DNA of 64,000 nucleotides from Heterodontus francisci (Eukaryota): the NCBI RefSeq assembly GCF_036365525.1, contig NC_090399.1, forward strand, positions 66,768,862 through 66,832,861. Direction: 5' to 3'. Below are positions 1 through 28,320 of the stretch, one piece after another; position 1 is the first letter of the stretch; every line of letters begins with the position of its first letter. The translations under genes and the position numbers were made by a program. The notes below the pieces were generated by a model. That model searched no databases. It saw only the letters and a program-made list of their open reading frames with translations, and was not told the origin of the DNA.

Positions 1-3000
1 TCCAGTCTCACTACAGGAGGGAGGGAGGGTCAGTGTTGAGCTGTGTGAGTATCCAGTCTCACTGCAGGAGGGAGAGTCAGTGCTGAGCTGTGTGAGGATC
101 CAGTCTCACTACAGGAGGGAGGGAGGGTCAGTGCTGAGCTGTGTGAGGATCCAGTCTCACTGCAGGAGGGAGAGTCAGTGTTGAGCTGTGTGAGGATCCA
201 GTCTCACTACAGGAGGGAGGGTCAGTGCTGAGCTGTGCGAGGATCCAGTCTCACTGCAGGAGGGAGGGAGCGTCAGTGCGAAGCTATGTGAGGATCCAGT
301 CTCACTACAGGAGGGAGGGAGGGTCAGTGCTGAACTGAGTGAGGATCCAGTCTCACTAGAGGAGGGAGAGTCAGTGCTGAGCTGTCTGAGGATCCAGTCT
401 CACTACAAGAGGGAGGGTCAGTGCTGAGCTCTGTGAGGATCCAGGCTCACTACAGGAGGCAGGGAGGGTCACTGCTGAGCTGTGTGTGGATCCAGTCTCA
501 CTACAAGACGGAGGGTCAGTGCTGAGCTGTGTGAGGATCCAGTCTCACTACAGGAGGGAGGGAGGGTCTGTGCTGAGCTGTGTGAGGATCCAGGATCACC
601 ACAGGAGGGAGGGACGGTCAGTGCTGAGCTGTGTGAGGATCCAGTCTCACGACAGGAGGGAGGGTCAGTGCTGAGCTGTGTGAGGATCCAGTCTCACGAC
701 AGGAGGGAGGGTCAGTGCTGAGCTGTGTGAGGATCCAGTCTCACTACAGGAGCGAGGGAGGGTCAGTGCTGAGCTGTGTGAGGATCCAGTCTCACGACAG
801 GAGGGAGGGTCAGTGCTGAGCAGTGTGAGGTTCCAGTCTCACTACAGGAGGGAGGGAGGGTCAGTGCTGAGCTGTGTGAAGATCCATTCTCACTAAAGGA
901 GGGAGGGTCAGTGCTGAGCTGCGTGAGGATCCGGTCTCACTACAGGAGGGTGGGTCAGTGCTGAGCTGTGTGAGGATCCAGTTTCACTACAGGAGGGAGG
1001 ATCAGTGCTGAGCTGTGTGAGGATCCAGTCTGACTACAGGAGGGAGGGTCAGTGCTGAGCTGTGTGAGGATCCAGTCTCACTACAGGAGGGAGGGTCAGT
1101 GCTGAGCTGTGTGAGGATCCAGTCTCACTCCAGGAGGGAGGGTCAGTGCTGAGCTGTGAGACGATCCAGTCTCACTACAGGAGGGAGGGTCAGTGCTGAG
1201 CTGTGTGAGGATCCAGTCTGACTACAGGAGGGAGGGTCAGTGCTGAGCTGTGTGAGGATCCAGTCTCACTACAGGAGGGAGGGTCAGTGCTGAGCTGTAT
1301 GAGGATCCAGTCTCACTACAGGAGGGAGGGTCAGTGTAGGGCTGTGTGAGGATCCAGTCTCACTACAGGAGGGAGGGAGGGTCAGTGCTGAGCTGTGTGA
1401 GGATCCAGTCTCACTACAGGAGGGAGGGAGGGTCAGTGCTGAGCTGTGTGAGGATCCAGTCTCACTACAGGAGGGCGGGTCAATGCTGAGCTGTGTGAGG
1501 ATCCAGTCTCACGACAGGAGGGAGGGAGGGTCAGTGCTGAGCTGTGTGAGGATCCAGTCTCAATACAGGAGGGAGCGTCAGTGCTGAGCTGTGTGAGGAT
1601 CCAGTTTCACTGCAGGAGGGAGGGTCAGTGCTGAGCTGTGTGAGGATCCAGTCTCACCGCAGGAGGGAGAGTCAGTGCTGAGCTGTGTGAGGATCCAGTC
1701 TCACTGCAGGAGGGAGGGTCAGTGCTGAGCTGTGTGAGGATCCAGTCTCACTACAGGAGGCAGGGTCAGTGCTGAGCTGTGTGAGGATCCAGTCTCACTA
1801 CAGAAGGGAGGGAGGGTCAGTGCTGAGCTGTGTGAGGATCCAGTCTCACTACAGGAGGGCGGGTCAGTGCTGAGCTGTGTGAGGATCCAGTCTCACTACA
1901 GGAGGCAGGGTCAGTGCTGAGCTGTGTGAGGATCCAGTCTCTCTACAGGAGGGAGGGAGGGTCAGTGCTGAGCTGTGTGAGGATCCAGTCTCACGACAGG
2001 AGGGAGAGAGGGTCAGTGCTGAGCTGTGTGAGGATCCAGTCTCACTACAGGAGGGAGGGTCAGTGCTGAGCTGTGTGAGGATCCAGTCTCACTCCAGGAG
2101 GGAGGGAGGGTCAGTGCTGAGCTGTGTGAGGATCCAGTCTCACTGCAGGAGGGAGGGTCAGTGCTGAGCTGTGTGAGGATCCAGTCTCACTACAGCAGAG
2201 AGGGTCAGTGCTGAGCTGTGTGAGGATCCACTCTCACTACAGGAGGGAGAGTCAGTGCTGAGCTGTGTGAGGATCCAGTCTCACCGCAGGAGGGAGGGTC
2301 AGTGCTGAGCTGTGTGAGGATCCAGTCTCACCGCAGGAGGGAGGGTCAGTGCTGAGCTGTGTGAGGATCCAGTCTCACCGCAGGAGGGAGAGTCAGTGCT
2401 GAGCTGTGTGAGGATCCAGTCTCACCGCAGGAGGGAGAGTCAGTGCTGAGCTGTGTGAGGATCCAGTCTCACGACAGGAGGGAGGGAGGGTCAGTGCTGA
2501 GCTGTGTGAGGATCCAGTCTCACTGCAGGAGGGAGAGTGAGTGCTGAGCTGTGTGAGGATCCAGTCTCACTACAGGAGGGAGGGAGGGTCAGTGCTGAGA
2601 TGTGTGAGGATCCAGTCTGACTCCAGGAGGGAGGGAGAGTCAGTGCTGAGCTGTGTGAGGATCCAGTTTCACTGCAGGAGGGAGGGTCAGTGCTGAGCTG
2701 TGCGAGGATCCACTCTCACTACAGGAGGAAGGGTCAGTGCTGAGCTGTGTGAGGATCCAGTCTCACTACAGGAGGGAGGGAGGGTCAGTGTTGAGCTGTG
2801 TGAGGATCCAGTCTCACTGCAGGAGGGAGAGTCAGTGCTGAGCTGTGTGAGGATCCAGTCTCACTACAGGAGGGAGGGAGGGTCAGTGCTGAGATGTGTG
2901 AGGATCCAGTCTGACTCCAGGAGGGAGGGAGAGTCAGTGCTGAGCTGTGTGAGGATCCAGTTTCACTGCAGGAGGGAGGGTCAGTGCTGAGCTGTGCGAG

Positions 3001-6000
3001 GATCCACTCTCACTACAGGAGGGAGGGTCAGTGCTGAGCTGTGTGAGGATCCAGTCTCACTACAGGAGGGAGGGAGGGTCAGTGTTGAGCTGTGTGAGTA
3101 TCCAGTCTCACTGCAGGAGGGAGAGTCAGTGCTGAGCTGTGTGAGGATCCAGTCTCACTACAGGAGGGAGGGAGGGTCAGTGCTGAGCTGTGTGAGGATC
3201 CAGTCTCACTGCAGGAGGGAGAGTCAGTGTTGAGCTGTGTGAGGATCCAGTCTCACTACAGGAGGGAGGGTCAGTGCTGAGCTGTGCGAGGATCCAGTCT
3301 CACTGCAGGAGGGAGGGAGCGTCAGTGCGAAGCTATGTGAGGATCCAGTCTCACTACAGGAGGGAGGGAGGGTCAGTGCTGAACTGAGTGAGGATCCAGT
3401 CTCACTAGAGGAGGGAGAGTCAGTGCTGAGCTGTCTGAGGATCCAGTCTCACTACAAGAGGGAGGGTCAGTGCTGAGCTCTGTGAGGATACAGGCTCACT
3501 ACAGGAGGCAGGGAGGGTCACTGCTGAGCTGTGTGTGGATCCAGTCTCACTACAAGACGGAGGGTCAGTGCTGAGCTGTGTGAGGATCCAGTCTCACTAC
3601 AGGAGGGAGGGAGGGTCTGTGCTGAGCTGTGTGAGGATCCAGGATCACCACAGGAGGGAGGGACGGTCAGTGCTGAGCTGTGTGAGGATCCAGTCTCACG
3701 ACAGGAGGGAGGGTCAGTGCTGAGCTGTGTGAGGATCCAGTCTCACGACAGGAGGGAGGGTCAGTGCTGAGCTGTGTGAGGATCCAGTCTCACTACAGGA
3801 GCGAGGGAGGGTCAGTGCTGAGCTGTGTGAGGATCCAGTCTCACGACAGGAGGGAGGGTCAGTGCTGAGCAGTGTGAGGTTCCAGTCTCACTACAGGAGG
3901 GAGGGAGGGTCAGTGCTGAGCTGTGTGAAGATCCATTCTCACTACAGGAGGGAGGGTCAGTGCTGAGCTGCGTGAGGATCCGGTCTCACTACAGGAGGGT
4001 GGGTCAGTGCTGAGCTGTGTGAGGATCCAGTTTCACTACAGGAGGGAGGATCAGTGCTGAGCTGTGTGAGGATCCAGTCTGACTACAGGAGGGAGGGTCA
4101 GTGCTGAGCTGTGTGAGGATCCAGTCTCACTACAGGAGGGAGGGTCAGTGCTGAGCTGTGTGAGGATCCAGTCTCACTCCAGGAGGGAGGGTCAGTGCTG
4201 AGCTGTGAGACGATCCAGTCTCACTACAGGAGGGAGGGTCAGTGCTGAGCTGTGTGAGGATCCAGTCTGACTACAGGAGGGAGGGTCAGTGCTGAGCTGT
4301 GTGAGGATCCAGTCTCACTACAGGAGGGAGGGTCAGTGCTGAGCTGTATGAGGATCCAGTCTCACTACAGGAGGGAGGGTCAGTGTAGGGCTGTGTGAGG
4401 ATCCAGTCTCACTACAGGAGGGAGGGAGGGTCAGTGCTGAGCTGTGTGAGGATCCAGTCTCACTACAGGAGGGAGGGAGGGTCAGTGCTGAGCTGTGTGA
4501 GGATCCAGTCTCACTACAGGAGGGCGGGTCAATGCTGAGCTGTGTGAGGATCCAGTCTCACGACAGGAGGGAGGGAGGGTCAGTGCTGAGCTGTGTGAGG
4601 ATCCAGTCTCAATACAGGAGGGAGCGTCAGTGCTGAGCTGTGTGAGGATCCAGTTTCACTGCAGGAGGGAGGGTCAGTGCTGAGCTGTGTGAGGATCCAG
4701 TCTCACCGCAGGAGGGAGAGTCAGTGCTGAGCTGTGTGAGGATCCAGTCTCACTGCAGGAGGGAGGGTCAGTGCTGAGCTGTGTGAGGATCCAGTTTCAC
4801 TGCAGGAGGGAGGGTCAGTGCTGAGCTGTGTGAGGATCCAGTCTCACTGCAGGAGGGAGGGTCAGTGCTGAGCTGTGTGAGGATCCAGTCTCACTACAGC
4901 AGGGAGGGTCAGTGCTGAGCTGTGTGAGGATCCACTCTCACTACAGGAGGGAGAGTCAGTGCTGAGCTGTGTGAGGATCCAGTCTCACCGCAGGAGGGAG
5001 GGTCAGTGCTGAGCTGTGTGAGGATCCAGTCTCACCGCAGGAGGGAGGGTCAGTGCTGAGCTGTGTGAGGATCCAGTCTCACCGCAGGAGGGAGAGTCAG
5101 TGCTGAGCTGTGTGAGGATCCAGTCTCACGACAGGAGGGAGGGAGGGTCAGTGCTGAGCTGTGTGAGGATCCAGTCTCACTGCAGGAGGGAGAGTGAGTG
5201 CTGAGCTGTGTGAGGATCCAGTCTCACTACAGGAGGGAGGGAGGGTCAGTGCTGAGATGTGTGAGGATCCAGTCTGACTCCAGGAGGGAGGGAGAGTCAG
5301 TGCTGAGCTGTGTGAGGATCCAGTTTCACTGCAGGAGGGAGGGTCAGTGCTGAGCTGTGCGAGGATCCACTCTCACTACAGGAGGGAGGGTCAGTGCTGA
5401 GCTGTGTGAGGATCCATCTCACTACAGGAGGGAGGGAGGGTCAGTGTTGAGCTGTGTGAGGATCCAGTCTCACTGCAGGAGGGAGAGTCAGTGCTGAGCT
5501 GTGTGAGGATCCAGTCTCACTACAGGAGGGAGGGAGGGTCAGTGCTGAGCTGTGTGAGGATCCAGTCTCACTGCAGGAAGGAGAGTCAGTGTTGAGCTGT
5601 GTGAGGATCCAGTCTCACTACAGGAGGGAGGGTCAGTGCTGAGCTGTGCGAGGATCCAGTCTCACTGCAGGAGGGAGGGAGAGTCAGTGCGAAGCTATGT
5701 GAGGATCCAGTCTCACTACAGGAGGGAGGGAGGGTCAGTGCTGAACTGAGTGAGGATCCAGTCTCACTACAAGAGGGAGGGTCAGTGCTGATCTGTCTGA
5801 GGATCCAGTCTCACTACAAGAGGGAGGGTCAGTGCTGAGCTCTGTGAGGATCCAGGCTCACTACAGGAGGCAGGGAGGGTCACTGCTGAGCTGTGTGAGG
5901 ATCCAGTCTCACTACAGGAGGGAGGGTCAGTGCTGAGCTGTCTGAGGATCCAGTCTCACTACAAGAGGGAGGGTCAGTGCTGAGCTCTGTGAGGATCCAG

Positions 6001-9000
6001 TCTCACTACAGGAGGGAGGGAGGGTCTGTGCTGAGCTGTGTGAGGATCCAGGATCACTACAGGAGGGAGGGAGGGTCTGTGCTGAGCTGTGTGAGGATCC
6101 AGGATCACCACAGGAGGGAGGGACGGTCAGTGCTGAGCTGTGTGAGGATCCAGTCTCACGACAGGAGGGAGGGTCAGTGCTGAGCTGTGTGAGGATCCAG
6201 TCTCACGACAGGAGGGAGGGTCAGTGCTGAGCTGTGTGAGGATCCAGTCTCACTACAGGAGCGAGGGAGCGTCAGTGCTGAGCTGTGTGAGGATCCAGTC
6301 TCACGACAGGAGGGAGGGTCAGTGCTGAGCAGTGTGAGGTTCCAGTCTCACTACAGGAGGGAGGGAGGGTCAGTGCTGAGCTGTGTGAAGATCCATTCTC
6401 ACTACAGGAGGGAGGGTCAGTGCTGAGCTGCGTGAGGATCCGGTCTCACTACAGGAGGGTGGGTCAGTGCTGAGCTGTGTGAGGATCCAGTTTCACTACA
6501 GGAGGGAGGATCAGTGCTGAGCTGTGTGAGGATCCAGTCTGACTACAGGAGGGAGGGTCAGTGCTGAGCTGTGTGAGGATCCAGTCTCACTACAGGAGGG
6601 AGGGTCAGTGCTGAGCTGTGTGAGGATCCAGTCTCACTCCAGGAGGGAGGTTCAGAGCTGAGCTGTGTGAGGATCCAGTCTGACTACAGGAGGGAGGGTC
6701 AGTGCTGAGCTGTGTGAGGATCCAGTCTCACTACAGGAGGGAGGGTCAGTGCTGAGCTGTGTGAGGATCCAGTCTCACTACAGGAGGGAGGGTCAGTGTA
6801 GGGCTGTGTGAGGATCCAGTCTCACTACAGGAGGGAGGGAGGGTCAGTGCTGAGCTGTGTGAGGATCCAGTCTCACTACAGGAGGGCGGGTCAATGCTGA
6901 GCTGTGTGAGGATCCAGTCTCTCTACAGGAGGGAGGGAGGGTCAGTGCTGAGCTTTGTGAGGATCCAGTCTCACTACAGGAGGGAGGGAGTGTCAGTGCT
7001 GAGCGGTGTGAGGATCCAGTCTCACGACAGGAGGGAGGGAGGGTCAGTGCTGAGCTGTGTGTGGATCCAGTCTCACTACAGGAGGGAGGGTCAGTGCTGA
7101 GCTGTGTGAAGATCCATTCTCACTTCAGGAGGGAGGGTCAGTGCTGAGCTGCGTGAGGATCCAGTCTCACGACAGGAGGGAGGGAGGGTCAGTGCAGAGC
7201 TGTGTGAGGATCCAGTTTCACTGCAGGAGGGAGGATCAGTGCTGAGCTGTGTGAGGATCCAGTCTGACTACAGGAGGGAGGGTCAGTGCTGAGCTGTGTG
7301 AGGATCCATTCTCACTACAGGAGGGAGGGTCAGTGCTGAGCTGTGTGAGGATCCAGTCTCACTCCAGGAGGGAGGGTCAGTGCTGAGCTGTGTGAGGATC
7401 CAGTCTGACTACAGGAGGGAGGGTCAGTGCTGAGCTGTGTGAGGATCCAGTCTCACTACAGGAGGGAGGGTCAGTGCTGAGCTGTGTGAGGATCCAGTCT
7501 CACTACAGGAGGGAGGGTCAGTGCTGGGCTGTGTGAGGATCCAGTCTCACTACAGGAGGGAGGGAGGGTCAGTGCTGAGCTGTGCGAGGATCCAGTCTCA
7601 CTACAGGAGGGAGGGTCAGTGCTGAGCTGTGTGAGGATCCAGTCTCACTACAGGAGGGAGGATCAGTGCTGAGCTGTGTGACGATCCAGTCTCACTACAG
7701 GAGGGAGGGTCAGTGCTGAGCTGTGTGAGGATCCAGTCTCACTACAGGAGGGAGGGTCAGTGCTGAGCTGTGTGAGGATCCAGTCTGACTACAGGAGGGA
7801 GGGAGGGTCAGTGTTGAGCTGTGTGAGGATCCAGTCTCACTACAGGAGGGAGGGTCAGTGCTGAGCTATGTGAGGATCCAGTCTCACTACAGGAGGGAGG
7901 GTCAGTGCTGAGCTGTGTGAGGTTCCAGTCTCTCTCCAGGAGGGAGCGAGGGTCAGTGCTGAGCTGTGTGAGGATCCAGTCTCACTCCAGGAGGGAGGGT
8001 CAGTGCTGAGCTGTGTGACGATCCATTCTCACTACAGGAGGGAGGGTCAGTGCTGAGCTGTGTGAGGATCCAGTCTCACTGCAGGAGGGAGGGTCAGTGC
8101 TGAGCTGTGTGACGATCCAGTCTCACTACAGGAGGGAGGGTCAGTGCTGAGCTGTGTGAGGATCCAGTCTCACTGCAGGAGGGAGGGTCAGTGCTGAGCT
8201 GTGTGACGATCCAGTCTCACTACAGGAGGGAGGGTCAGTGCTGAGCTGTGTGACGATCCAGTCTCACTACAGGAGGGAGGGTCAGTGCTGAGCTGTGTGA
8301 GGTTCCAGTCTCACTACAGGAGGGAGGGTCAGTGCTGAGCTGTGTGAGGATCCAGTCTGACTACAGGAGGGAGGGAGGGTCAGTGTTGAGCAGTGTGAGG
8401 ATCCAGTCTCACGACAGGAGGGAGGGTCAGTGCTGAGCAGTGTGAGGATCCAGTCTCACTACAGGAGGGAGGGAGGGTCAGTGCTGAGCTGTGAGAAGAT
8501 CCATTCTCACTACAGGAGGGAGGGTCAGTGCTGAGCTGCGTGAGGATCCAGTCTCACTACAGGAGGGAGGATCAGTGCTGAGCTGTGTGAGGATCCAGTC
8601 TCACTACAGGAGGGAGGGTCTGTGCTGAGCTGTGTGAGGATCCAGTCTCACTACAGGAGGGAGGGTCAGTGCTGGGCTGTGTGAGGATCCAGTCTCACTA
8701 CAGGAGGGAGGGAGGGTCAGTGCTGAGCTGTGTGAGGATCCAGTCTCACTACAGGAGGGCGGGTCAGTGCTGAGCTGTGTGAGGATCCAGTCTCACTACA
8801 GGAGGCAGGGTCAGTGCTGAACTGAGTGAGGATCCAGTCTCACTAGAGGAGGGAGAGTCAGTGCTGAGCTGTCTGAGGATCCAGTCTCACTACAAGAGGG
8901 AGGGTCAGTGCTGAGCTCTGTGAGGATCCAGGCTCACTACAGGAGGCAGGGAGGGTCACTGCTGAGCTGTGTGTGGATCCAGTCTCACTACAAGACGGAG

Positions 9001-12000
9001 GGTCAGTGCTGAGCTGTGTGAGGATCCAGTCTCACTACAGGAGGGAGGGAGGGTCTGTGCTGAGCTGTGTGAGGATCCAGGATCACCACAGGAGGGAGGG
9101 ACGGTCAGTGCTGAGCTGTGTGAGGATCCAGTCTCACGACAGGAGGGAGGGTCAGTGCTGAGCTGTGTGAGGATCCAGTCTCACTACAGGAGCGAGGGAT
9201 TGTCAGTGCTGAGCTGTGTGAGGATCCAGTCTCACGACAGGAGGGAGGGTCAGTGCTGAGCAGTGTGAGGTTCCAGTCTCACTACAGGAGGGAGGGAGGG
9301 TCAGTGCTGAGCTGTGTGAAGATCCATTCTCACTACAGGGGGGAGGGTCAGTGCTGAGCTGCGTGAGGATCCGGTCTCACTACAGGAGGGTGGGTCAGTG
9401 CTGAGCTGTGTGAGGATCCAGTTTCACTACAGGAGGGAGGATCAGTGCTGAGCTGTGTGAGGATCCAGTCTGACTACAGGAGGGAGGGTCAGTGCTGAGC
9501 TGTGTGAGGATCCAGTCTCACTACAGGAGGGAGGGTCAGTGCTGAGCTGTGTGAGGATCCAGTCTCACTCCAGGAGGGAGGGTCAGTGCTGAGCTGTGTG
9601 AGGATCCAGTCTGACTACAGGAGGGAGGGTCAGTGCTGAGCTGTGTGAGGATCCAGTCTCACTACAGGAGGGAGGGTCAGTGCTGAGCTGTGTGAGGATC
9701 CAGTCTCACTACAGGAGGGAGGGTCAGTGTAGGGCTGTGTGAGGATCCAGTCTCACTACAGGAGGGAGGGAGGGTCAGTGCTGAGCTGTGTGAGGATCCA
9801 GTTTCACTACAGGAGGGCGGGTCAATGCTGAGCTGTGTGAGGATCCAGTCTCTCTACAGGAGGGAGGGAGGGTCAGTGCTGAGCTTTGTGAGGATCCAGT
9901 CTCACTACAGGAGGGAGGGAGTGTCAGTGCTGAGCGGTGTGAGGATCCAGTCTCACGACAGGAGGGAGGGAGGGTCAGTGCTGAGCTGTGTGTGGATCCA
10001 GTCTCACTACAGGAGGGAGGGTCAGTGCTGAGCTGTGTGAGGATCCAGTCTCACTACAGGAGGGAGGGTCAGTGCTGAGCTGTGTGAAGATCCATTCTCA
10101 CTTCAGGAGGGAGGGTCAGTGCTGAGCTGCGTGAGGATCCAGTCTCACGACAGGAGGGAGGGAGGGTCAGTGCAGAGCTGTGTGAGGATCCAGTTTCACT
10201 GCAGGAGGGAGGATCAGTGCTGAGCTGTGTGAGGATCCAGTCTGACTACAGGAGGGAGGGTCAGTGCTGAGCTGTGTGAGGATCCAGTCTCACTACAGGA
10301 GGGAGGGTCAGTGCTGAGCTGTGTGAGGATCCAGTCTCACTCCAGGAGGGAGGGTCAGTGCTGAGCTGTGTGAGGATCCAGTCTGACTACAGGAGGGAGG
10401 GTCAGTGCTGAGCTGTGTGAGGATCCAGTCTCACTACAGGAGGGAGGGTCAGTGCTGAGCTGTGTGAGGATCCAGTCTCACTACAGGAGGGAGGGTCAGT
10501 GCTGGGCTGTGTGAGGATCCAGTCTCACTACAGGAGGGAGGGAGGGTCAGTGCTGAGCTGTGCGAGGATCCAGTCTCACTACAGGAGGGAGGGTCAGTGC
10601 TGAGCTGTGTGAGGATCCAGTCTCACTACAGGAGGGAGGATCAGTGCTGAGCTGTGTGACGATCCAGTCTCACTACAGGAGGGAGGGTCAGTGCTGAGCT
10701 GTGTGAGGATCCAGTCTCACTACAGGAGGGAGGGTCAGTGCTGAGCTGTGTGAGGATCCAGTCTGACTACAGGAGGGAGGGAGGGTCAGTGTTGAGCTGT
10801 GTGAGGATCCAGTCTCACTACAGGAGGGAGGGTCAGTGCTGAGCTATGTGAGGATCCAGTCTCACTACAGGAGGGAGGGTCAGTGCTGAGCTGTGTGAGG
10901 TTCCAGTCTCTCTCCAGGAGGGAGCGAGGGTCAGTGCTGAGCTGTGTGAGGATCCAGTCTCACTCCAGGAGGGAGGGTCAGTGCTGAGCTGTGTGACGAT
11001 CCATTCTCACTGCAGGAGGGAGGGTCAGTGCTGAGCTGTGTGAGGATCCAGTCTCACTGCAGGAGGGAGGGTCAGTGCTGAGCTGTGTGACGATCCAGTC
11101 TCACTACAGGAGGGAGGGTCAGTGCTGAGCTGTGTGAGGATCCAGTCTCACTGCAGGAGGGAGGGTCAGTGCTGAGCTGTGTGACGATCCAGTCTCACTA
11201 CAGGAGGGAGGGTCAGTGCTGAGCTGTGTGACGATCCAGTCTCACTACAGGAGGGAGGGTCAGTGCTGAGCTGTGTGAGGTTCCAGTCTCACTACAGGAG
11301 GGAGGGTCAGTGCTGAGCTGTGTGAGGATCCAGTCTGACTACAGGAGGGAGGGAGGGTCAGTGTTCAGCAGTGTGAGGATCCAGTCTCACGACAGGAGGG
11401 AGGGTCAGTGCTGAGCTGTGTGAGGATCCAGTCTCACTACAGGAGCGAGGGAGGGTCAGTGCAGAGCTGTGTGAGGATCCAGTCTCACTACAGGAGGGAG
11501 GGTCAGTGCTGAGCAGTGTGAGGATCCAGTCTCACTACAGGAGGGAGGGAGGGTCAGTGCTGAGCTGTGTGAAGATCCATTCTCACTACAGGAGGGAGGG
11601 TCAGTGCTGAGCTGCGTGAGGATCCAGTCTCACTACAGGAGGGAGGATCAGTGCTGAGCTGTGTGAGGATCCAGTCTCACTACAGGAGGGAGGGTCTGTG
11701 CTGAGCTGTGTGAGGATCCAGTCTCACTACAGGAGGGAGGGTCAGTGCTGGGCTGTGTGAGGATCCAGTCTCACTACAGGAGGGAGGGAGGGTCAGTGCT
11801 GAGCTGTGTGAGGATCCAGTCTCACTACAGGAGGGCGGGTCAGTGCTGAGCTGTGTGAGGATCCAGTCTCACTACAGGAGGCAGGGTCAGTGCTGAGCTG
11901 TGTGAGGATCCAGTCTCTCTACAGGAGGGAGGGAGGGTCAGTGCTGAGCTGTGTGAGGATCCAGTCTCACGACAGGTGGTAGAGAGGGTCAGTGCTGAGC

Positions 12001-15000: not shown

Positions 15001-18000
15001 CAGTCTCACTGCAGGAGGGAGGGTCAGTGCTGAGCTGTGTGAGGATCCAGTCCACCACAGGAGGGAGGGTCAGTGCTGAGCTGTGTGAGGATCCAGTCTC
15101 ACTACAGGAGGGAGGGTCAGTGCTGAGCTGTGTGAGGATCCAGTCTCACTACAGGAGGCAGGGAGGGTCAGTGCTGAGCTGTGTGAGGATCCAGTCTCAC
15201 TACAGGGGGGAGGGTCAGTGCTGAGCTGGGTGAGGATCCAGTCTCACTGCAGGAGGGAGGGTCTGTGCTGAGCTGTGTGAGGATCCAGTCTCACTACAGG
15301 AGGGAGGATCAGTGCTGAGCTGTGTGAGGATCCTGTCTCACTACAGGAGGGAGGGTCAGTGTTGAGCTGTGTGAGGATCCAGTCTCACTACAGGAGGGAG
15401 GGAGGGTCAGTGCTGAGCTGTGTGAGGATCCAGTCTCACAACAGGAGGGCGGGTCAATGCTGAGCTGTGTGAGGATCCAGTCTCACTGCAGGAGGGAGGG
15501 AGGGTCAGTGCTGAGCTGTGTGAGGATCCAGTCTCACTACAGGAGGGAGGGAGTGTCAGTGCTGAGCTGTGTGAGGATCCAGTCTCACGACAGGAGGGAG
15601 GGTCAGTGCTGAGCTGTGTGAGGATCCAGTCTCACTACAGGAGGGAGGGTCAGTGCTGAGCTGTGTGAAGATCCATTCTCACTACAGGAGGGAGGGTCAG
15701 TGCTGAGCTGTGTGAGAATCCAGTCTCACTACAGGAGGGAGGGTCAGTGCTGAGCTGTGTGAAGATCCATTCTCACTACAGGAGGGAGGGTCAGTGCTGA
15801 GCTGTGTGAGGATCCAGTCTCACTACAGGAGGGTGGGTCAGTGCTGAGCTGTGTGAGGATCCAGTTTCACTACAGGAGGGAGGATCAGTGCTGAGCTGTG
15901 TGAGGATCCAGTCTGACTCCAGGAGGGAGGGTCAGTGCTGAGCTGTGTGAGGATCCAGTCTCACTACAGGAGGGAGGGTCAGTGCTGAGCTGTGTGAGGA
16001 TCCAGTCTCACTCCAGGAGGGAGGGTCAGTGCTGAGCTGTGTGAGGATCCAGTCTGACTACAGGAGGGAGGGTCATTGCTGAGCTGTGTGAGGATCCAGT
16101 CTCACTACAGGAGGGAGGGTCAGTGCTGAGCTGTGTGAGGATCCAGTCTCACTACAGGAGGGAGGGTCAGTGCTGGGCTGTGTGAGGATCCAGTCTCACT
16201 ACAGGAGGGAGGGAGGGTCAGTGCTGAGCTGTGTGAGGATCCAGTCTCACTACAGGAGGGAGGGAGGGTCAGTGCTGAGCTGTGTGAGGATCCAGTCTCA
16301 CTACAGGAGGGAGGGAGTGTCAGTGCTGAGCTGTGTGAGGATCCAGTCTCACGACAGGAGGGAGGGAGGGTCAGTGCTGAGCTGTGTGAGGATCCAGTCT
16401 CACTACAGGAGGGAGGGTCAGTGCTGAGCTGTGTGAGGATCCAGTCTCACTGCTGGAGGGTGGGTCAGTGCTGAGCTGTGTGAGGATCCAGTCCACCACA
16501 GGAGGGAGGGTCAGTGCTGAGCTGTGTGAGGATCCAGTCTCACTACAGGAGGCAGGGAGGGTCAGTGCTGAGCTGTGTGAGGATCCAGTCTCACTACAGG
16601 GGGGAGGGTCAGTGCTGAGCTGGGTGAGGATCCAGTCTCACTGCAGGAGGGAGGGTCTGTGCTGAGCTGTGTGAGGATCCAGTCTCACTACAGGAGGGAG
16701 GATCAGTGCTGAGCTGTGTGAGGATCCTGTCTCACTACAGGAGGGAGGGTCAGTGTTGAGCTGTGTGAGGATCCAGTCTCACTACAGGAGGGAGGGAGGG
16801 TCAGTGCTGAGCTGTGTGAGGATCCAGTCTCACAACAGGAGGGCGGGTCAATGCTGAGCTGTGTGAGGATCCAGTCTCACTGCAGGAGGGAGGGAGGGTC
16901 AGTGCTGAGCTGTGTGAGGATCCAGTCTCACTACAGGAGGGAGGGAGTGTCAGTGCTGAGCTGTGTGAGGATCCAGTCTCACGACAGGAGGGAGGGAGAG
17001 TCAGTGCTGAGCTGTGTGAGGATCCAGTCTCACTACAGGAGGGAGGGTCAGTGCTGAGCTGTGTGAGGATCCAGTCTCACTACAGGAGGGAGGGTCAGTG
17101 CTGAGCAGTGTGAAGATCCATTCTCACTACAGGAGGGAGGGTCAGTGCTGAGCTGTGTGAGGATCCAGTCTCACTACAGGAGGGTGGGTCAGTGCTGAGC
17201 TGTGTGAGGATCCAGTTTCACTACAGGAGGGAGGATCAGTGCTGAGCTGTGTGAGGATCCAGTCTGACTCCAGGAGGGAGGGTCAGTGCTGAGCTGTGTG
17301 AGGATCCAGTCTCACTACAGGAGGGAGGGTCAGTGCTGAGCTGTGTGAGGATCCAGTCTCACTCCAGGAGGGAGGGTCAGTGCTGAGCTGTGTGAGGATC
17401 CAGTCTGACTACAGGAGGGAGGGTCATTGCTGAGCTGTGTGAGGATCCAGTCTCACTACAGGAGGGAGGGTCAGTGCTGAGCTGTGTGAGGATCCAGTCT
17501 CACTACAGGAGGGAGGGTCAGTGCTGAGCTGTGTGAGGATCCAGTCTCACTACAGGAGGCAGGGAGGGACAGTGCTGAGCTGTGTGAGGATCCAGTCTGA
17601 CTACAGGAGGGAGGGTCAGTGCTGAGCTGGGTGAGGATCCAGTCTCACTACAGGAGGGAGGGTCAGTGCTGAGCTGTGTGAGGATCCAGTCTCACTACAG
17701 GAGGGAGGGTCAGTGCTGGGCTGTGTGAGGATCCAGTCTCACTACAGGAGGGAGGGAGGGTCAGTGCTGAGCTGTGTGAGGATCCAGTCTCACTACAGGA
17801 GGGCGGGTCAATGCTGAGCTGCGTGAGGATCCAGTCTCTCTACAGGAGGGAGGGAGGGTCAGTGCTGAGCTGTGTGAGGATCCAGTCTCACTACAGGAGG
17901 GAGGGAGTGTCAGTGCTGAGCTGTGTGAGGATCCAGTCTCACGACAGGAGGGAGGGAGGGTCAGTGCTGAGCTGTGTGAGGATCCAGTCTCACTACAGGA

Positions 18001-21000
18001 GGGAGGATCAGTGCTGAGCTGTGTGAGGATCCAGTCTCACTACAGGAGGGAGGGTCAGTGCTGAGCTGTGTGAGGATCCAGTCTCACTACAGGAGGGAGG
18101 GTCAGTGCTGAGCTGTGTGAGGATCCAGTCTCACTACAGGAGGGAGGGACAGTGCAGGGCTGTGTGAGGATCCAGTCTCACTACAGGAGGGAGGGAGGGT
18201 CAGTGCTGAGCTGTGTGAGGATCCAGTCTCACAACAGGAGGGCGGGTCAATGCTGAGCTGTGTGAGGATCCAGTCTCACTGCAGGAGGGAGGGTCAGTGC
18301 TGAGCTGTGTGAGGATCCAGTCTCACTACAGGAGGGAGGGAGTGTCAGTGCTGAGCTGTGTGAGGATCCAGTCTCACGACAGGAGGGAGGGAGAGTCAGT
18401 GCTGAGCTGTGTGAGGATCCAGTCTCACTACAGGAGGGAGGGTCAGTGCTGAGCTGTGTGAGGATCCAGTCTCACTACAGGAGGGAGGGAGGGTCAGTGC
18501 TGAGCTGTGTGAGGATCCAGTCTCACTACAGGAGGGAGGGAGGGTCAGTGCTGAGCTGTGTGAGGATCCAGTCTCACTACAGGAGGGAGGGAGTGTCAGT
18601 GCTGAGCTGTGTGAGGATCCAGTCTCACGAAAGGAGGGAGTGAGGGTCAGTGCTGAGCTGTGTGAGGATCCAGTCTCACTACAGGAGGGAGGGTCAGTGC
18701 TGAGCTGTGTGAGGATCCAGTCTCACTGCAGGAGGGAGGGTCAGTGCTGAGCTGTGTGAGGATCCAGTCTCACGACAGGAGGGAGGGTCAGTGCTGAGCT
18801 GTGTGAGGATCCAGTCTCACTACAGGAGGGAGGGTCAGTGCTGAGCTGTGTGAGGATCCAGTCTCACTACAGGAGGCAGGGAGGGTCAGTGCTGAGCTGT
18901 GTGAGGATCCAGTCTGACTACAGGAGGGAGGGTCAGTGCTGAGCTGGGTGAGGATCCAGTCTCACTACAGGAGGGAGGGTCAGTGCTGAGCTGTGTGAGG
19001 ATCCAGTCTCACTACAGGAGGGAGGGTCAGTGCTGGGCTGTGTGAGGATCCAGTCTCACTACAGGAGGGAGGGAGGGTCAGTGCTGAGCTGTGTGAGGAT
19101 CCAGTCTCACTACAGGAGGGCGGGTCAATGCTGAGCTGCGTGAGGATCCAGTCTCTCTACAGGAGGGAGGGAGGGTCAGTGCTGAGCTGTGTGAGGATCC
19201 AGTCTCACTACAGGAGGGAGGGAGTGTCAGTGCTGAGCTGTGTGAGGATCCAGTCTCACGACAGGAGGGAGGGAGGGTCAGTGCTGAGCTGTGTGAGGAT
19301 CCAGTCTCACTACAGGAGGGAGGGAGGGTCAGTGCTGAGCTGTGTGAGGATCCAGTCTCACAACAGGAGGGCGGGTCAATGCTGAGCTGTGTGAGGATCC
19401 AGTCTCACTGCAGGAGGGAGGGAGGGTCAGTGCTGAGCTGTGTGAGGATCCAGTCTCACTACAGGAGGGAGGGAGTGTCAGTGCTGAGCTGTGTGAGGAT
19501 CCAGTCTCACGACAGGAGGGAGGGAGAGTCAGTGCTGAGCTGTGTGAGGATCCAGTCTCACTACAGGAGGGAGGGTCAGTGCTGAGCTGTGTGAGGATCC
19601 AGTCTCACTACAGGAGGGAGGGTCAGTGCTGAGCAGTGTGAAGATCCATTCTCACTACAGGAGGGAGGGTCAGTGCTGAGCTGTGTGAGGATCCAGTCTC
19701 ACTACAGGAGGGTGGGTCAGTGCTGAGCTGTGTGAGGATCCAGTTTCACTACAGGAGGGAGGATCAGTGCTGAGCTGTGTGAGGATCCAGTCTGACTCCA
19801 GGAGGGAGGGTCAGTGCTGAGCTGTGTGAGGATCCAGTCTCACTACAGGAGGGAGGGTCAGTGCTGAGCTGTGTGAGGATCCAGTCTCACTCCAGGAGGG
19901 AGGGTCAGTGCTGAGCTGTGTGAGGATCCAGTCTGACTACAGGAGGGAGGGTCATTGCTGAGCTGTGTGAGGATCCAGTCTCACTACAGGAGGGAGGGTC
20001 AGTGCTGAGCTGTGTGAGGATCCAGTCTCACTACAGGAGGGAGGGTCAGTGCTGAGCTGTGTGAGGATCCAGTCTCACTACAGGAGGCAGGGAGGGACAG
20101 TGCTGAGCTGTGTGAGGATCCAGTCTGACTACAGGAGGGAGGGTCAGTGCTGAGCTGGGTGAGGATCCAGTCTCACTACAGGAGGGAGGGTCAGTGCTGA
20201 GCTGTGTGAGGATCCAGTCTCACTACAGGAGGGAGGGTCAGTGCTGGGCTGTGTGAGGATCCAGTCTCACTACAGGAGGGAGGGAGGGTCAGTGCTGAGC
20301 TGTGTGAGGATCCAGTCTCACTACAGGAGGGCGGGTCAATGCTGAGCTGCGTGAGGATCCAGTCTCTCTACAGGAGGGAGGGAGGGTCAGTGCTGAGCTG
20401 TGTGAGGATCCAGTCTCACTACAGGAGGGAGGGAGTGTCAGTGCTGAGCTGTGTGAGGATCCAGTCTCACGACAGGAGGGAGGGAGGGTCAGTGCTGAGC
20501 TGTGTGAGGATCCAGTCTCACTACAGGAGGGAGGATCAGTGCTGAGCTGTGTGAGGATCCAGTCTCACTACAGGAGGGAGGGTCAGTGCTGAGCTGTGTG
20601 AGGATCCAGTCTCACTACAGGAGGGAGGGTCAGTGCTGAGCTGTGTGAGGATCCAGTCTCACTACAGGAGGGAGGGACAGTGCAGGGCTGTGTGAGGATC
20701 CAGTCTCACTACAGGAGGGAGGGAGGGTCAGTGCTGAGCTGTGTGAGGATCCAGTCTCACAACAGGAGGGCGGGTCAATGCTGAGCTGTGTGAGGATCCA
20801 GTCTCACTGCAGGAGGGAGGGTCAGTGCTGAGCTGTGTGAGGATCCAGTCTCACTACAGGAGGGAGGGAGTGTCAGTGCTGAGCTGTGTGAGGATCCAGT
20901 CTCACGACAGGAGGGAGGGAGAGTCAGTGCTGAGCTGTGTGAGGATCCAGTCTCACTACAGGAGGGAGGGTCAGTGCTGAGCTGTGTGAGGATCCAGTCT

Positions 21001-24000
21001 CACTACAGGAGGGAGGGAGGGTCAGTGCTGAGCTGTGTGAGGATCCAGTCTCACTACAGGAGGGAGGGAGGGTCAGTGCTGAGCTGTGTGAGGATCCAGT
21101 CTCACTACAGGAGGGAGGGAGTGTCAGTGCTGAGCTGTGTGAGGATCCAGTCTCACGAAAGGAGGGAGTGAGGGTCAGTGCTGAGCTGTGTGAGGATCCA
21201 GTCTCACTACAGGAGGGAGGGTCAGTGCTGAGCTGTGTGAGGATCCAGTCTCACTGCAGGAGGGAGGGTCAGTGCTGAGCTGTGTGAGGATCCAGTCTCA
21301 CGACAGGAGGGAGGGTCAGTGCTGAGCTGTGTGAGGATCCAGTCTCACTACAGGAGGGAGGGTCAGTGCTGAGCTGTGTGAGGATCCAGTCTCACTACAG
21401 GAGGCAGGGAGGGTCAGTGCTGAGCTGTGTGAGGATCCAGTCTGACTACAGGAGGGAGGGTCAGTGCTGAGCTGGGTGAGGATCCAGTCTCACTACAGGA
21501 GGGAGGGTCAGTGCTGAGCTGTGTGAGGATCCAGTCTCACTACAGGAGGGAGGGTCAGTGCTGGGCTGTGTGAGGATCCAGTCTCACTACAGGAGGGAGG
21601 GAGGGTCAGTGCTGAGCTGTGTGAGGATCCAGTCTCACTACAGGAGGGCGGGTCAATGCTGAGCTGCGTGAGGATCCAGTCTCTCTACAGGAGGGAGGGA
21701 GGGTCAGTGCTGAGCTGTGTGAGGATCCAGTCTCACTACAGGAGGGAGGGAGTGTCAGTGCTGAGCTGTGTGAGGATCCAGTCTCACGACAGGAGGGAGG
21801 GAGGGTCAGTGCTGAGCTGTGTGAGGATCCAGTCTCACTACAGGAGGGAGGGAGGGTCAGTGCTGAGCTGTGTGAGGATCCAGTCTCACTACAGGAGGGA
21901 GGGAGTGTCAGTGCTGAGCTGTGTGAGGATCCAGTCTCACGAAAGGAGGGAGTGAGGGTCAGTGCTGAGCTGTGTGAGGATCCAGTCTCACTACAGGAGG
22001 GAGGGTCAGTGCTGAGCTGTGTGAGGATCCAGTCTCACTGCAGGAGGGAGGGTCAGTGCTGAGCTGTGTGAGGATCCAGTCTCACGACAGGAGGGAGGGT
22101 CAGTGCTGAGCTGTGTGAGGATCCAGTCTCACTACAGGAGGGAGGGTCAGTGCTGAGCTGTGTGAGGATCCAGTCTCACTACAGGAGGCAGGGAGGGTCA
22201 GTGCTGAGCTGTGTGAGGATCCAGTCTGACTACAGGAGGGAGGGTCAGTGCTGAGCTGGGTGAGGATCCAGTCTCACTACAGGAGGGAGGGTCAGTGCTG
22301 AGCTGTGTGAGGATCCAGTCTCACTACAGGAGGGAGGGTCAGTGCTGGGCTGTGTGAGGATCCAGTCTCACTACAGGAGGGAGGGAGGGTCAGTGCTGAG
22401 CTGTGTGAGGATCCAGTCTCACTACAGGAGGGCGGGTCAATGCTGAGCTGCGTGAGGATCCAGTCTCTCTACAGGAGGGAGGGAGGGTCAGTGCTGAGCT
22501 GTGTGAGGATCCAGTCTCACTACAGGAGGGAGGGAGTGTCAGTGCTGAGCTGTGTGAGGATCCAGTCTCACGACAGGAGGGAGGGAGGGTCAGTGCTGAG
22601 CTGTGTGAGGATCCAGTCTCACTACAGGAGGGAGGGTCAGTGCTGAGCTGTGTGAGGATCCAGTCTCACTGCAGGAGGGAGGGTCAGTGCTGAGCTGTGT
22701 GAGGATCCAGTCTCACGACAGGAGGGAGGGTCAGTGCTGAGCTGTGTGAGGATCCAGTCTCACTACAGGAGGGAGGGTCAGTGCTGAGCTGTGTGAGGAT
22801 CCAGTCTCACTACAGGAGGCAGGGAGGGTCAGTGCTGAGCTGTGTGAGGATCCAGTCTCACTACAGGGGGGAGGGTCAGTGCTGAGCTGGGTGAGGATCC
22901 AGTCTCACTGCAGGAGGGAGGGTCAGTGCTGAGCTGTGTGAGGATCCAGTCTCACTACAGGAGGGAGGATCAGTGCTGAGCTGTGTGAGGATCCTGTCTC
23001 ACTACAGGAGGGAGGGTCAGTGTTGAGCTGTGTGAGGATCCAGTCTCACTACAGGAGGGAGGATCAGTGCTGAGCTGTGTGAGGATCCAGTCTCACTACA
23101 GGAGGGAGGGTCAGTGTTGAGCTGTGTGAGGATCCAGTCTCACTACAGGAGGGAGGGTCAGTGCTGAGCTGTGTGAGGATCCAGTCTCACTACAGGAGGG
23201 AGGGTCAGTGCTGAGCTGTGTGAGGATCCAGTCTCACTACAGGAGGGAGGGACAGTGTAGGGCTGTGTGAGGATCCAGTCTCACTACAGGAGGGAGGGAG
23301 GGTCAGTGCTGAGCTGTGTGAGGATCCAGTCTCACAACAGGAGGGCGGGTCAATGCTGAGCTGTGTGAGGATCCAGTCTCACTGCAGGAGGGAGGGAGGG
23401 TCAGTGCTGAGCTGTGTGAGGATCCAGTCTCACTACAGGAGGGAGGGAGTGTCAGTGCTGAGCTGTGTGAGGATCCAGTCTCACGACAGGAGGGAGGGAG
23501 AGTCAGTGCTGAGCTGTGTGAGGATCCAGTCTCACTACAGGAGGGAGGGTCAGTGCTGAGCTGTGTGAGGATCCAGTCTCACTACAGGAGGGAGGGTCAG
23601 TGCTGAGCTGTGTGAAGATCCATTCTCACTACAGGAGGGAGGGTCAGTGCTGAGCTGCGTGAGGATCCAGTCTCACTACAGGAGGGTGGGTCAGTGCTGA
23701 GCTGTGTGAGGATCCAGTTTCACTACAGGAGGGAGGATCAGTGCTGAGCTGTGTGAGGATCCAGTCTGACTCCAGGAGGGAGGGTCAGTGCTGAGCTGTG
23801 TGAGGATCCAGTCTCACTACAGGAGGGAGGGTCAGTGCTGAGCTGTGTGAGGATCCAGTCTCACTCCAGGAGGGAGGGTCAGTGCTGAGCTGTGTGAGGA
23901 TCCAGTCTGACTACAGGAGGGAGGGTCATTGCTGAGCTGTGTGAGGATCCAGTCTCACTCCAGGAGGGAGGGTCAGTGCTGAGCTGTGTGAGGATCCAGT

Positions 24001-27000
24001 CTCACTACAGGAGGGAGGGTCAGTGCTGGGCTGTGTGAGGATCCAGTCTCACTACAGGAGGGAGGGAGGGTCAGTGCTGAGCTGTGTGAGGATCCAGTCT
24101 CACTACAGGAGGGAGGGAGGGTCAGTGCTGAGCTGTGTGAGGATCCAGTCTCACTACAGGAGGGAGGGTCAGTGCTGAGCTGTGTGAGGATCCAGTCTCA
24201 CTGCAGGAGGGAGGGTCAGTGCTGAGCTGTGTGAGGATCCAGTCTCACGACAGGAGGGAGGGTCAGTGCTGAGCTGTGTGAGGATCCAGTCTCACTACAG
24301 GAGGGAGGGTCAGTGCTGAGCTGTGTGAGGATCCAGTCTCACTACAGGAGGCAGGGAGGGTCAGTGCTGAGCTGTGTGAGGATCCAGTCTCACTACAGGG
24401 GGGAGGGTCAGTGCTGAGCTGGGTGAGGATCCAGTCTCACTGCAGGAGGGAGGGTCAGTGCTGAGCTGTGTGAGGATCCAGTCTCACTACAGGAGGGAGG
24501 ATCAGTGCTGAGCTGTGTGAGGATCCTGTCTCACTACAGGAGGGAGGGTCAGTGTTGAGCTGTGTGAGGATCCAGTCTCACTACAGGAGGGAGGATCAGT
24601 GCTGAGCTGTGTGAGGATCCAGTCTCACTACAGGAGGGAGCGTCAGTGTTGAGCTGTGTGAGGATCCAGTCTCACTACAGGAGGGAGGGTCAGTGCTGAG
24701 CTGTGTGAGGATCCAGTCTCACTACAGGAGGGAGGGTCAGTGCTGAGCTGTGTGAGGATCCAGTCTCACTACAGGAGGGAGGGACAGTGTAGGGCTGTGT
24801 GAGGATCCAGTCTCACTACAGGAGGGAGGGAGGGTCAGTGCTGAGCTGTGTGAGGATCCAGTCTCACAACAGGAGGGCGGGTCAATGCTGAGCTGTGTGA
24901 GGATCCAGTCTCACTGCAGGAGGGAGGGAGGGTCAGTGCTGAGCTGTGTGAGGATCCAGTCTCACTACAGGAGGGAGGGAGTGTCAGTGCTGAGCTGTGT
25001 GAGGATCCAGTCTCACGACAGGAGGGAGGGAGAGTCAGTGCTGAGCTGTGTGAGGATCCAGTCTCACTACAGGAGGGAGGGTCAGTGCTGAGCTGTGTGA
25101 GGATCCAGTCTCACTACAGGAGGGAGGGTCAGTGCTGAGCTGTGTGAAGATCCATTCTCACTACAGGAGGGAGGGTCAGTGCTGAGCTGCGTGAGGATCC
25201 AGTCTCACTACAGGAGGGTGGGTCAGTGCTGAGCTGTGTGAGGATCCAGTTTCACTACAGGAGGGAGGATCAGTGCTGCGCTGTGTGAGGATCCAGTCTG
25301 ACTCCAGGAGGGAGGGTCAGTGCTGAGCTGTGTGAGGATCCAGTCTCACTACAGGAGGGAGGGTCAGTGCTGAGCTGTGTGAGGATCCAGTCTCACTCCA
25401 GGAGGGAGGGTCAGTGCTGAGCTGTGTGAGGATCCAGTCTGACTACAGGAGGGAGGGTCATTGCTGAGCTGTGTGAGGATCCAGTCTCACTCCAGGAGGG
25501 AGGGTCAGTGCTGAGCTGTGTGAGGATCCAGTCTCACTACAGGAGGGAGGGTCAGTGCTGGGCTGTGTGAGGATCCAGTCTCACTACAGGAGGGAGGGAG
25601 GGTCAGTGCTGAGCTGTGTGAGGATCCAGTCTCACTACAGGAGGGAGGGAGGGTCAGTGCTGAGCTGTGTGAGGATCCAGTCTCACTACAGGAGGGAGGG
25701 TCAGTGCTGAGCTGTGTGAGGATCCAGTCTCACTGCAGGAGGGAGGGTCAGTGCTGAGCTGTGTGAGGATCCAGTCTCACGACAGGAGGGAGGGTCAGTG
25801 CTGAGCTGTGTGAGGATCCAGTCTCACTACAGGAGGGAGGGTCAGTGCTGAGCTGTGTGAGGATCCAGTCTCACTACAGGAGGCAGGGAGGGTCAGTGCT
25901 GAGCTGTGTGAGGATCCAGTCTCACTACAGGGGGGAGGGTCAGTGCTGAGCTGGGTGAGGATCCAGTCTCACTGCAGGAGGGAGGGTCAGTGCTGAGCTG
26001 TGTGAGGATCCAGTCTCACTACAGGAGGGAGGATCAGTGCTGAGCTGTGTGAGGATCCTGTCTCACTACAGGAGGGAGGGTCAGTGTTGAGCTGTGTGAG
26101 GATCCAGTCTCACTACAGGAGGGAGGATCAGTGCTGAGCTGTGTGAGGATCCAGTCTCACTACAGGAGGGAGGGTCAGTGTTGAGCTGTGTGAGGATCCA
26201 GTATCACTACAGGAGGGAGGGTCAGTGCTGAGCTGTGTGAGGATCCAGTCTCACTACAGGAGGGAGGGTCAGTGCTGAGCTGTGTGAGGATCCAGTCTCA
26301 CTACAGGAGGGAGGGACAGTGTAGGGCTGTGTGAGGATCCAGTCTCACTACAGGAGGGAGGGAGAGTCAGTGCTGAGCTGTGTGAGGATCCAGTCTCACA
26401 ACAGGAGGGCGGGTCAATGCTGAGCTGTGTGAGGATCCAGTCTCACTGCAGGAGGGAGGGAGGGTCAGTGCTGAGCTGTGTGAGGATCCAGTCTCACTAC
26501 AGGAGGGAGGGAGTGTCAGTGCTGAGCTGTGTGAGGATCCAGTCTCACGACAGGAGGGAGGGAGAGTCAGTGCTGAGCTGTGTGAGGATCCAGTCTCACT
26601 ACAGGAGGGAGGGTCAGTGCTGGGCTGTGTGAGGATCCAGTCTCACTACAGGAGGGAGGGAGGGTCAGTGCTGAGCTGTGTGAGGATCCAGTCTCACTAC
26701 AGGAGGGAGGGAGTGTCAGTGCTGAGCTGTGTGAGGATCCAGTCTCACGACAGGAGGGAGTGAGGGTCAGTGCTGAGCTGTGTGAGGATCCAGTCTCACT
26801 ACAGGAGGGAGGGTCAGTGCTGAGCTGTGTGAGGATCCAGTCTCACTGCAGGAGGGAGGGTCAGTGCTGAGCTGTGTGAGGATCCAGTCTCACGACAGGA
26901 GGGAGTGTCAGTGCTGAGCTGTGTGAGGATCCAGTCTCACGACAGGAGGGAGTGAGGGTCAGTGCTGAGCTGTGTGAGGATCCAGTCTCACTACAGGAGG

Positions 27001-28020
27001 GAGGGTCAGTGCTGAGCTGTGTGAGGATCCAGTCTCACTGCAGGAGGGAGGGTCAGTGCTGAGCTGTGTGAGGATCCAGTCTCACGACAGGAGGGAGGGT
27101 CAGTGCTGAGCTGTGTGAGGATCCAGTCTCACTACAGGAGGGAGGGTCAGTGCTGAGCTGTGTGAGGATCCAGTCTCACTACAGGAAGCAGGGAGGGTCA
27201 GTGCTGAGCTGTGTGAGGATCCAGTCTCACTACAGGAGGGAGGGTCAGTGCTGAGCTGGGTGAGGATCCAGTCTCACTGCAGGAGGGAGGGTCAGTGCTG
27301 AGCTGTGTGAGGATCCAGTCTCACTACAGGAGGGAGGATCAGTGCTGAGCTGTGTGAGGATCCAGTCTCACTACAGGAGGGAGGGTCAGTGTTGAGCTGT
27401 GTGAGGATCCAGTCTCACTACAGGAGGGAGGATCAGTGCTGAGCTGTGTGAGGATCCAGTCTCACTACAGGAGGGAGGGTCAGTGTTGAGCTGTGTGAGG
27501 ATCCAGTCTCACTACAGGAGGGAGGGTCAGTGCTGAGCTGTGTGAGGATCCAGTCTCACTACAGGAGGGAGGGTCAGTGCTGAGCTGTGTGAGGATCCAG
27601 TCTCCACTGCAGGAGGGAGGGTCAGTGCTGAGCTGTGTGAGGATCCAGTCTCACTACAGGAGGGAGGGTCAATGCTGAGCTGTGTGAGGATCCAGTCTCA
27701 CTACAGGAGGGAGGGTCAGTGCTGAGCTGTTTGAGGATCCAGTCTCCACTGAAGGAGGGAGGGTCAATGCTGAGCTGTGTGAGGATCCAGTCTCTCTACA
27801 GGAGGGAGGGAGGGTCAGTGCTGAGCTGTGTGAGGATCCAGTCTCACGACAGGAGGGAGGGAGTGTCAGTGCTGAGCTGTGTGAGGATCCAGTCTCACGA
27901 CAGGAGGGAGGGAGGGTCAGTGCTGAGCTGTGTGAGGATCCAGTCTCACTACAGGAGGGAGGGTCAGTGCTGAGCTGTGTGAGGATCCAGTCTCACTCCA
28001 GGAGGGAGGGGGGGTCAGTG
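1..28020. repeat. Satellite/minisatellite array with a 47-bp monomer (51-bp variant with extra GGGA), roughly 580 copies, running off the 5' end of the window
   Basis: Consensus GGGTCAGTGCTGAGCTGTGTGAGGATCCAGTCTCACTACAGGAGGGA repeats head-to-tail without interruption, with a GGATCC (BamHI) site in most monomers. Copy number is length divided by about 48. Confidence 0.99.
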
Positions 28021-28134
28021 TGTCCCGGGATATTACAGCGCGGTGGGGCTCTGTGTGTCCTCTCTCTCTCTCTCTCTGCCTGTGTCTGTTCCCTGATGTC
28101 TAATTCACGCTCTCTCTCTGGTTCTATTTGTCAG

Positions 28135-28239: not shown

Positions 28240-28320
28240 GTAGGAATTGGAGAGAAAAAGGGCAGATGCTCACTGGGGCCGTGCGGACTCTGGGTGATGT
28301 AAGTTTGGGGAAGGGGGACA

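Follow-up and report, generated by a model that had tools for sequence, protein, structure and literature searches.

The transmembrane (TM) exon of an MHC class I gene from Heterodontus francisci, the horn shark, is directly preceded by a minisatellite array of at least 28 kb, which likely makes up nearly all of the intron between the alpha3 and TM exons. We consider it probable that this array is older than the local class I duplications, grew block by block, and is a near-neutral passenger that is removed by splicing. The window, i.e. the whole stretch of DNA analysed, has a length of 64 kb and is devoid of N letters. Its relevant features are as follows.

1 to 28020, plus strand: 47/51-bp minisatellite, about 580 monomers head-to-tail, 5' end open (from TRF, cutting at an anchor, and composition)
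16757 to 21889, plus strand: exact tandem duplication of a 52-monomer block of 2,528 bp, 0 mismatches
28021 to 28134, plus strand: 3' end of the alpha3-TM intron, in unique sequence with branch motif, pyrimidine tract and AG acceptor; RNA-type contigs start at 28134
28135 to 28239, plus strand: TM exon, MHC class I, 105 nt, phase 1-1; XP_067865035.1 contains its translation
28321 to 30778, plus strand: second minisatellite, unrelated to the 47/51-bp one, 34 copies of a 72-bp unit, in the intron between the TM exon and the first cytoplasmic exon (TM-Cyt1 intron)
44665 to 44697, plus strand: cytoplasmic exon 1; its start matches the loose RNA ends behind 28239
44972 to 45019, plus strand: cytoplasmic exon 2, with the stop codon
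45688 to 46430, plus strand: likely 3' UTR exon (AG before 45688, AATAAA at 46413, probable end)

TRF reports one tandem array at 1-28010 (period 47, 580.5 copies), and likeness to the monomer persists to 28020, where it stops. When the array is cut at an anchor, 578 intervals result, with 391 of 47 nt and 180 of 51 nt; the others have 46 nt (4), 48 nt (2) and 97 nt (1, consisting of two monomers with the anchor between them missed). The monomers belong to 139 distinct types. Their mean identity is 0.96, with about 0.94-0.95 over the initial 6 kb and a rise to 0.97 at the 3' end. The preliminary description of this DNA had reported an uninterrupted array of at least 28 kb, and indeed no insert of non-monomer sequence was found within it. 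Its 5' end lies beyond the window, so that the length is a lower bound. The array is G-rich on the sense strand (GC skew +0.31 to +0.37, about +0.34) and CpG-poor (CpG o/e 0.08, with a monomer GC content of 58%). It contains neither AATAAA nor ATTAAA. Two donor-like motifs occur per monomer (539 GTRAG and 498 GTCAGT), whereas EcoRI, HindIII, EcoRV, XbaI, BglII, RsaI, TaqI and MseI do not cut the visible array at all. Minisatellites (VNTRs) have a unit of 10-100 bp, repeated head-to-tail with interspersed variants, and differ in copy number from allele to allele. Unit size, arrangement and variants of the array are those of a minisatellite. What had been called a satellite array is thus a genuine tandem array, whose unit size places it with the minisatellites and not with the classical satellites. 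The possibility that the array hides an exon or ORF was considered and rejected: the longest stop-free frame has 162 codons, all of them repeat, and there are no class I matches.

The array ends 114 nt upstream of a canonical acceptor (originally estimated as about 115 bp). This unique segment consists of 78% pyrimidines, lacks any AG between 28039 and 28132, and has a CTAAT branch motif at 28100-28104, 31 nt from the acceptor, so that branch point and pyrimidine tract are intact as described. The visible part of the alpha3-TM intron amounts to 28.1 kb, of which 99.6% is repeat. The TM exon and both cytoplasmic exons have AG/GT ends, and the translation of each is contained in XP_067865035.1, which is a full class I chain of Heterodontus francisci with 343 aa (P0001; signal peptide, alpha1, alpha2, alpha3, TM and cytoplasmic tail). 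When the full protein was compared to the window by tblastn, the TM and first cytoplasmic exons were found, together with five weak matches (E >=0.05), none of them in the array. Accordingly, the array carries no alpha3 exon, as had been claimed, and exons for alpha1-3 were not detected by this search anywhere in the 64-kb window.

When the TM exon is read in frame, it matches four class I proteins out of 122 candidates, each of them from Heterodontus francisci (best identity 97%). XP_067865035.1 has the domains of an MHC class I heavy chain, with alpha1-alpha2 (PF00129, E 2e-47) followed by a C1-set alpha3 (PF07654, E 6e-13), and its best PDB match is a nurse shark class I chain (6LUP, E 3e-109). 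A tree was computed from 39 of 120 fetched proteins (the best 120 of 238 matches, 188-601 aa). In this tree, XP_067865035.1 groups with XP_067865034.1, XP_067865029.1 and AAC60349.1 (support 100/99), apart from a 12-row clade which we take to be UBA. Classical class Ia genes are highly polymorphic, show high and broad expression and are linked to TAP/PSMB8/9, and their chains anchor the peptide termini through the conserved positions 7, 59, 84, 143, 146, 147, 159 and 171. While XP_067865029.1 retains every anchor residue, XP_067865035.1 retains seven of the eight; at position 84 it carries Q instead of the R present in 35 of the 39 aligned rows, and it thus lacks the complete anchor set of a classical class Ia chain. 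Because of this Q and its minor share of the RNA contigs (see below), the gene looks like a class Ia-like duplicate rather than the main classical gene. A TM-less form of XP_067865035.1 does not occur among the best 120 of 238 matches (188-601 aa), which is weak evidence.

The four proteins are nearly uniform in alpha3 (80-87 of 88 residues identical) and diverse in alpha1 (33-68 of 87). Clear domain discordance separates alpha1 from alpha2 and is not seen across alpha3-TM. The cDNA-derived protein AAC60349.1 resembles XP_067865034.1 in alpha1 (68/87), and matches XP_067865029.1 in alpha2 (78/91), alpha3 (87/88) and the tail (25/25); it may possibly be an alpha1 shuffle of the kind seen in salmonids. 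The tail of XP_067865034.1 is aberrant. The horn shark also has another class I group (P0067 and P0074), which clusters with Squalus Q8HWH7 (100/100) and is separate from the clade of the window's gene; P0067 carries the full anchor set.

Contigs from four of 18 listed runs were compared over 27960-28318. Three runs (X5, X6 and X7) are guessed to be RNA, and one (X1) is DNA. All four consist of contigs only, from one sample (36, 2, 123 and 17 records), and 26 of 185 pieces are listed; none of the contigs spans the array. No run is recorded as RNA, and those guessed as RNA (X5-X8) contain 0.21-0.44 of the words of 44600-46440. Loose ends before 28134 occur in 2, 1 and 7 contigs of X5, X6 and X7, and all of them are the end of alpha3 (agreement 1), while the loose ends behind 28239 are the first cytoplasmic exon. 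The RNA-type contigs thus carry the alpha3-TM and TM-Cyt1 junctions, mostly of the paralog type, with only four upstream letters from the window's own copy. Canonical exons and RNA-type junctions of the gene family together indicate that the TM and cytoplasmic exons are spliced to alpha3.

Nearly all of the contig depth has paralog letters, either of the XP_067865029.1 type or of a second variant, perhaps an allele of XP_067865029.1. The window's own TM variant is represented by one X5 contig, which matches over 81 nt with 0 differences and starts at the acceptor, preceded by four letters that are unlike the intron. Its depth is 67, compared to 16,000-18,000 (about 17,000) for the paralog-type contigs in X5, contig depth being a poor measure of expression. 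This variant is absent from the 2 X6 contigs and the 27 X7 contigs over position 28160. The DNA contigs of X1 do not include it either, and contigs can drop variants. Letters of the XP_067865034.1 type (28186 C, 28227 C) occur in none of the RNA-type contigs. No RNA-type contig covers 28020-28127, which is a gap in the contigs and proves nothing.

Two X1 DNA contigs connect class I exons to the repeat. In one, the end of alpha3 is followed by a GTAAGT donor, 12 further bases and then the monomer, which is thus reached 18 nt into the intron. As this contig reads V-F-Y, it may come from the window's copy or from XP_067865029.1, both of which fit. The other, of 467 nt, has TM letters of the XP_067865034.1 type and continues upstream of the TM exon into the monomer. 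A paralog thus seems to have the repeat at the same TM junction; a chimera of the assembly graph is possible. Among the pieces listed for 27960-28318, none joins the monomer to the TM acceptor. The RNA-type contigs include head-to-tail monomers (depth 8.9 and 111), but these may be pre-mRNA, DNA or other loci, and they were therefore not taken as evidence of transcription. The original placement of the array in the alpha3-TM intron is borne out by the complete class I model, by the monomer 18 nt past an alpha3 donor, and by the alpha3-TM junction in RNA-type contigs. For continuity to the alpha3 exon of the window's own copy, the support consists of the RefSeq model and one contig. Two points had escaped the preliminary description: the gene appears to be a minor duplicate of the class Ia-like kind, and the repeat seems to be common to a paralog.

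In the explanation which we favour, the 47/51-bp unit would have been amplified in the alpha3-TM intron before the local class I duplications. The array would then have grown via duplication of monomer blocks, by slippage or unequal exchange, and, as a nearly neutral passenger, would be transcribed and then removed by splicing. Tolerance of the array would follow from the splice signals being confined to the unique ends (18 nt and 114 nt) and from the lack of poly(A) signals within it. We infer that the donor-side contig stems from the window's copy and not from one of its paralogs, that the array runs without a break from its donor end to its acceptor end, that its age exceeds that of the local class I duplications, and that gene output is little affected by it. 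Repeated monomer blocks are found at offsets of 16, 27, 32, 52, 61, 62 and 64 monomers. When the array was cut again at another anchor, 292 of 570 monomers were within exact runs of at least 8 that occur elsewhere in the array, and certain variants are restricted to one half of it. Such a block pattern would be as expected of slippage or unequal exchange. The second, unrelated minisatellite in the next intron is counted in favour of the passenger reading, and so are the enlarged MHC genes of the nurse shark, with repeats in one class I gene (PMC1513397). The low contig depth of the window's copy counts against it, as a cis effect of the array predicts the same.

Such a cis effect is the alternative that survives best, even though we judge it unlikely. 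The long array might dampen transcription or splicing in cis, so that array length helps to make a duplicated class Ia gene a low-expression copy. The disparity in depth between the window's TM variant and the paralog type would fit, as would the XP_067865034.1-type letters, which are linked to the monomer in DNA and missing from the RNA-type contigs. Low expression is, however, usual in Ia-like duplicates and can be caused by the promoter, which counts against an effect of the array. In addition, the V-F-Y contig also fits XP_067865029.1, so that the abundant gene may carry the array as well, and no joint between monomer and TM exon is among the pieces listed. The two donor-like motifs per monomer speak for interference with splicing, and splicing of ABCA7 is affected by an intronic VNTR, according to the available part of PMC8744678. 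It is tempting to speculate that the array acts as a length-tuned dimmer, although this appears somewhat more doubtful still: the longest alpha3-TM arrays would turn paralogs or alleles down or cost them the TM exon, and the fast-mutating repeat, common to the duplicated class Ia-type genes, would decide which gene is the dominant classical one, while the others are pushed towards a non-classical role. Skipping of the 105-nt TM exon (phase 1-1) would stay in frame, and a soluble form via intronic polyadenylation would find no signal in the visible 28 kb.

It is rather improbable that arrays common to neighbouring class I paralogs are sites of unequal exchange or conversion, possibly similar to switch regions, at which ectodomains and TM/tail halves are swapped or gene number is changed. 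The apparent presence of the repeat at the same place in a paralog would be in line with this, and so would the near identity of alpha3 among the four proteins, compared to the diversity of alpha1. However, the clear domain discordance is at alpha1/alpha2, as in teleosts. Immunoglobulin switch regions are characterized by a G-rich non-template strand, dense WGCW/AGCT motifs, G4 motifs and a mutation footprint of the AID type. The array does have a G-rich non-template strand, and WGCW is more frequent in it than in the flanking DNA (41 versus 18 per kb, with 2 per monomer), but a shuffled monomer reaches the same WGCW/AGCT content in 7% of 20,000 trials. Three-tier G4 motifs do not occur in the array, and germline monomer variants are not in excess at WRC/GYW sites (mean of 5.2 carriers, compared to 10.4 at other G/C). 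Similarity to an Ig switch region is therefore not supported. The initial proposal that the array modulates expression, isoforms or recombination has not found support so far.

Even less probable is a genuine array whose length, or the join across which, is an assembly product, due to an inflated block or to a switch between paralogs or haplotypes inside a common repeat. The perfect 2,528-bp block may reflect either a recent expansion or an assembly duplication, and singleton monomers are absent from the region between about 17.2 and 22.8 kb. The monomer is seemingly common to paralogs, and class Ia models are listed as 'partial' for white shark and catshark in the tables seen of the supplement to PMC10751288. 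On the other hand, the array has 139 types of monomer, 8 of 10 bins contain singletons and some variants are restricted to certain regions, which is unlike a simple assembler copy, and the array still has about 25.5 kb after removal of the duplicate block. The alternative offered in the preliminary description, an orphan 3' gene fragment beside an intergenic satellite, has very little in its favour: although alpha1-3 exons are absent from the 64-kb window, a complete RefSeq model has this exact tail, splice signals and frame are intact, the contig with the window's own variant begins at the acceptor, and both the donor-side contig and the alpha3-TM junction argue against it.

The TM-Cyt1 intron is also swollen. 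It has a length of 16.4 kb and contains the 72-bp minisatellite and three reverse-transcriptase-related elements. The 72-bp array begins 81 nt past the TM donor, so that the TM exon has arrays on both sides; it has a GC skew of about +0.7 and 168 overlapping three-tier G4 motifs. The retroelement frames are located at 31578-33539 (minus strand), 34378-36213 (plus strand) and 38767-39749 (plus strand). Within this intron, an RVT_1 domain (E 8e-33) is found in an open frame of 653 codons and a weak one (E 5e-4) in a frame of 611 codons, which we take by eye to be Penelope-like; a zf-RVT domain is at 39198-39746. On the 3' side of the gene, a fragment of a LINE-type reverse transcriptase is encoded at 52508-53167 (plus strand, RVT_1 E 4e-25). 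The region of about 56250-58700 may represent remains of an LTR-type retroelement, judged by eye from a motif like a primer binding site and broken text resembling a reverse transcriptase. At 60519-64000, a CCT-rich pyrimidine tract of 2.7 kb is followed by a C-rich 27/121-bp compound repeat that continues past the end of the window.

Repeat-swollen MHC genes are already known from sharks. The sections consulted of PMC1513397 state, from Ohta et al. 2002, that nurse shark MHC genes have 3-5 times the size of mammalian ones and that a class I gene contains GC-rich simple repeats. The likeness consists in an enlarged shark MHC gene with repeats inside a class I gene. The nurse shark repeats have 70-80% GC and are given there without unit, length or intron, whereas the present array has a 47/51-bp unit, 58% GC, at least 28 kb and a position in the alpha3-TM intron. 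Some human VNTRs, that of ABCA7 among them, are likewise minisatellites that lie in an intron and have interspersed variants; as far as described in the part of PMC8744678 at hand, the ABCA7 VNTR spans 0.3-10 kb or somewhat more and its splicing effect has been demonstrated. In the Drosophila Y-loop genes kl-3 and kl-5 (PMC6508621, in part), an intron is almost wholly tandem repeat, but this is a megabase simple satellite in a germline-specific gene with dedicated RNA-binding proteins. The horn shark array has at least 28 kb (28.1 kb of intron visible). An intron of >10 kb is also found in classical class I genes of salmonids, cyprinids and medaka. According to the portion consulted of PMC6523485, exon shuffling in teleosts is placed in the alpha1-alpha2 intron. 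There, the long intron splits the two peptide-binding domains and recombinants are documented, whereas the horn shark intron is downstream of alpha3, so that an exchange would not alter the groove.

In the accessible text of PMC10751288, elasmobranch Ia-like genes are located near a single class Ia gene and resemble the gene described here in being closely related to a class I chain that keeps every anchor; partial Ia models are reported for white shark and catshark, Heterodontus is not included, and introns are not mentioned (0 matches). Elasmobranchs have abundant simple tandem repeats and show intron growth (PMC10620051; bioRxiv 10.1101/2025.06.08.657570; both in the parts available). The corresponding parts of PMC12863176, PMC10768021 and PMC2275976 hold nothing that bears on the array. 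The horn shark array itself was not found described in the literature covered, with most subscription papers outside this coverage.

If the array is neutral, it is a striking yet ordinary instance of shark introns growing by repeats. The frequent fragmentation of shark class Ia genes in assemblies would then likely be explained by it, as the partial models suggest, and it would be a candidate for a long VNTR marker within the MHC. If, instead, array length tracks expression, the array would provide a testable mechanism by which one class I gene is kept dominant after duplication, in the oldest lineage that bears an MHC.
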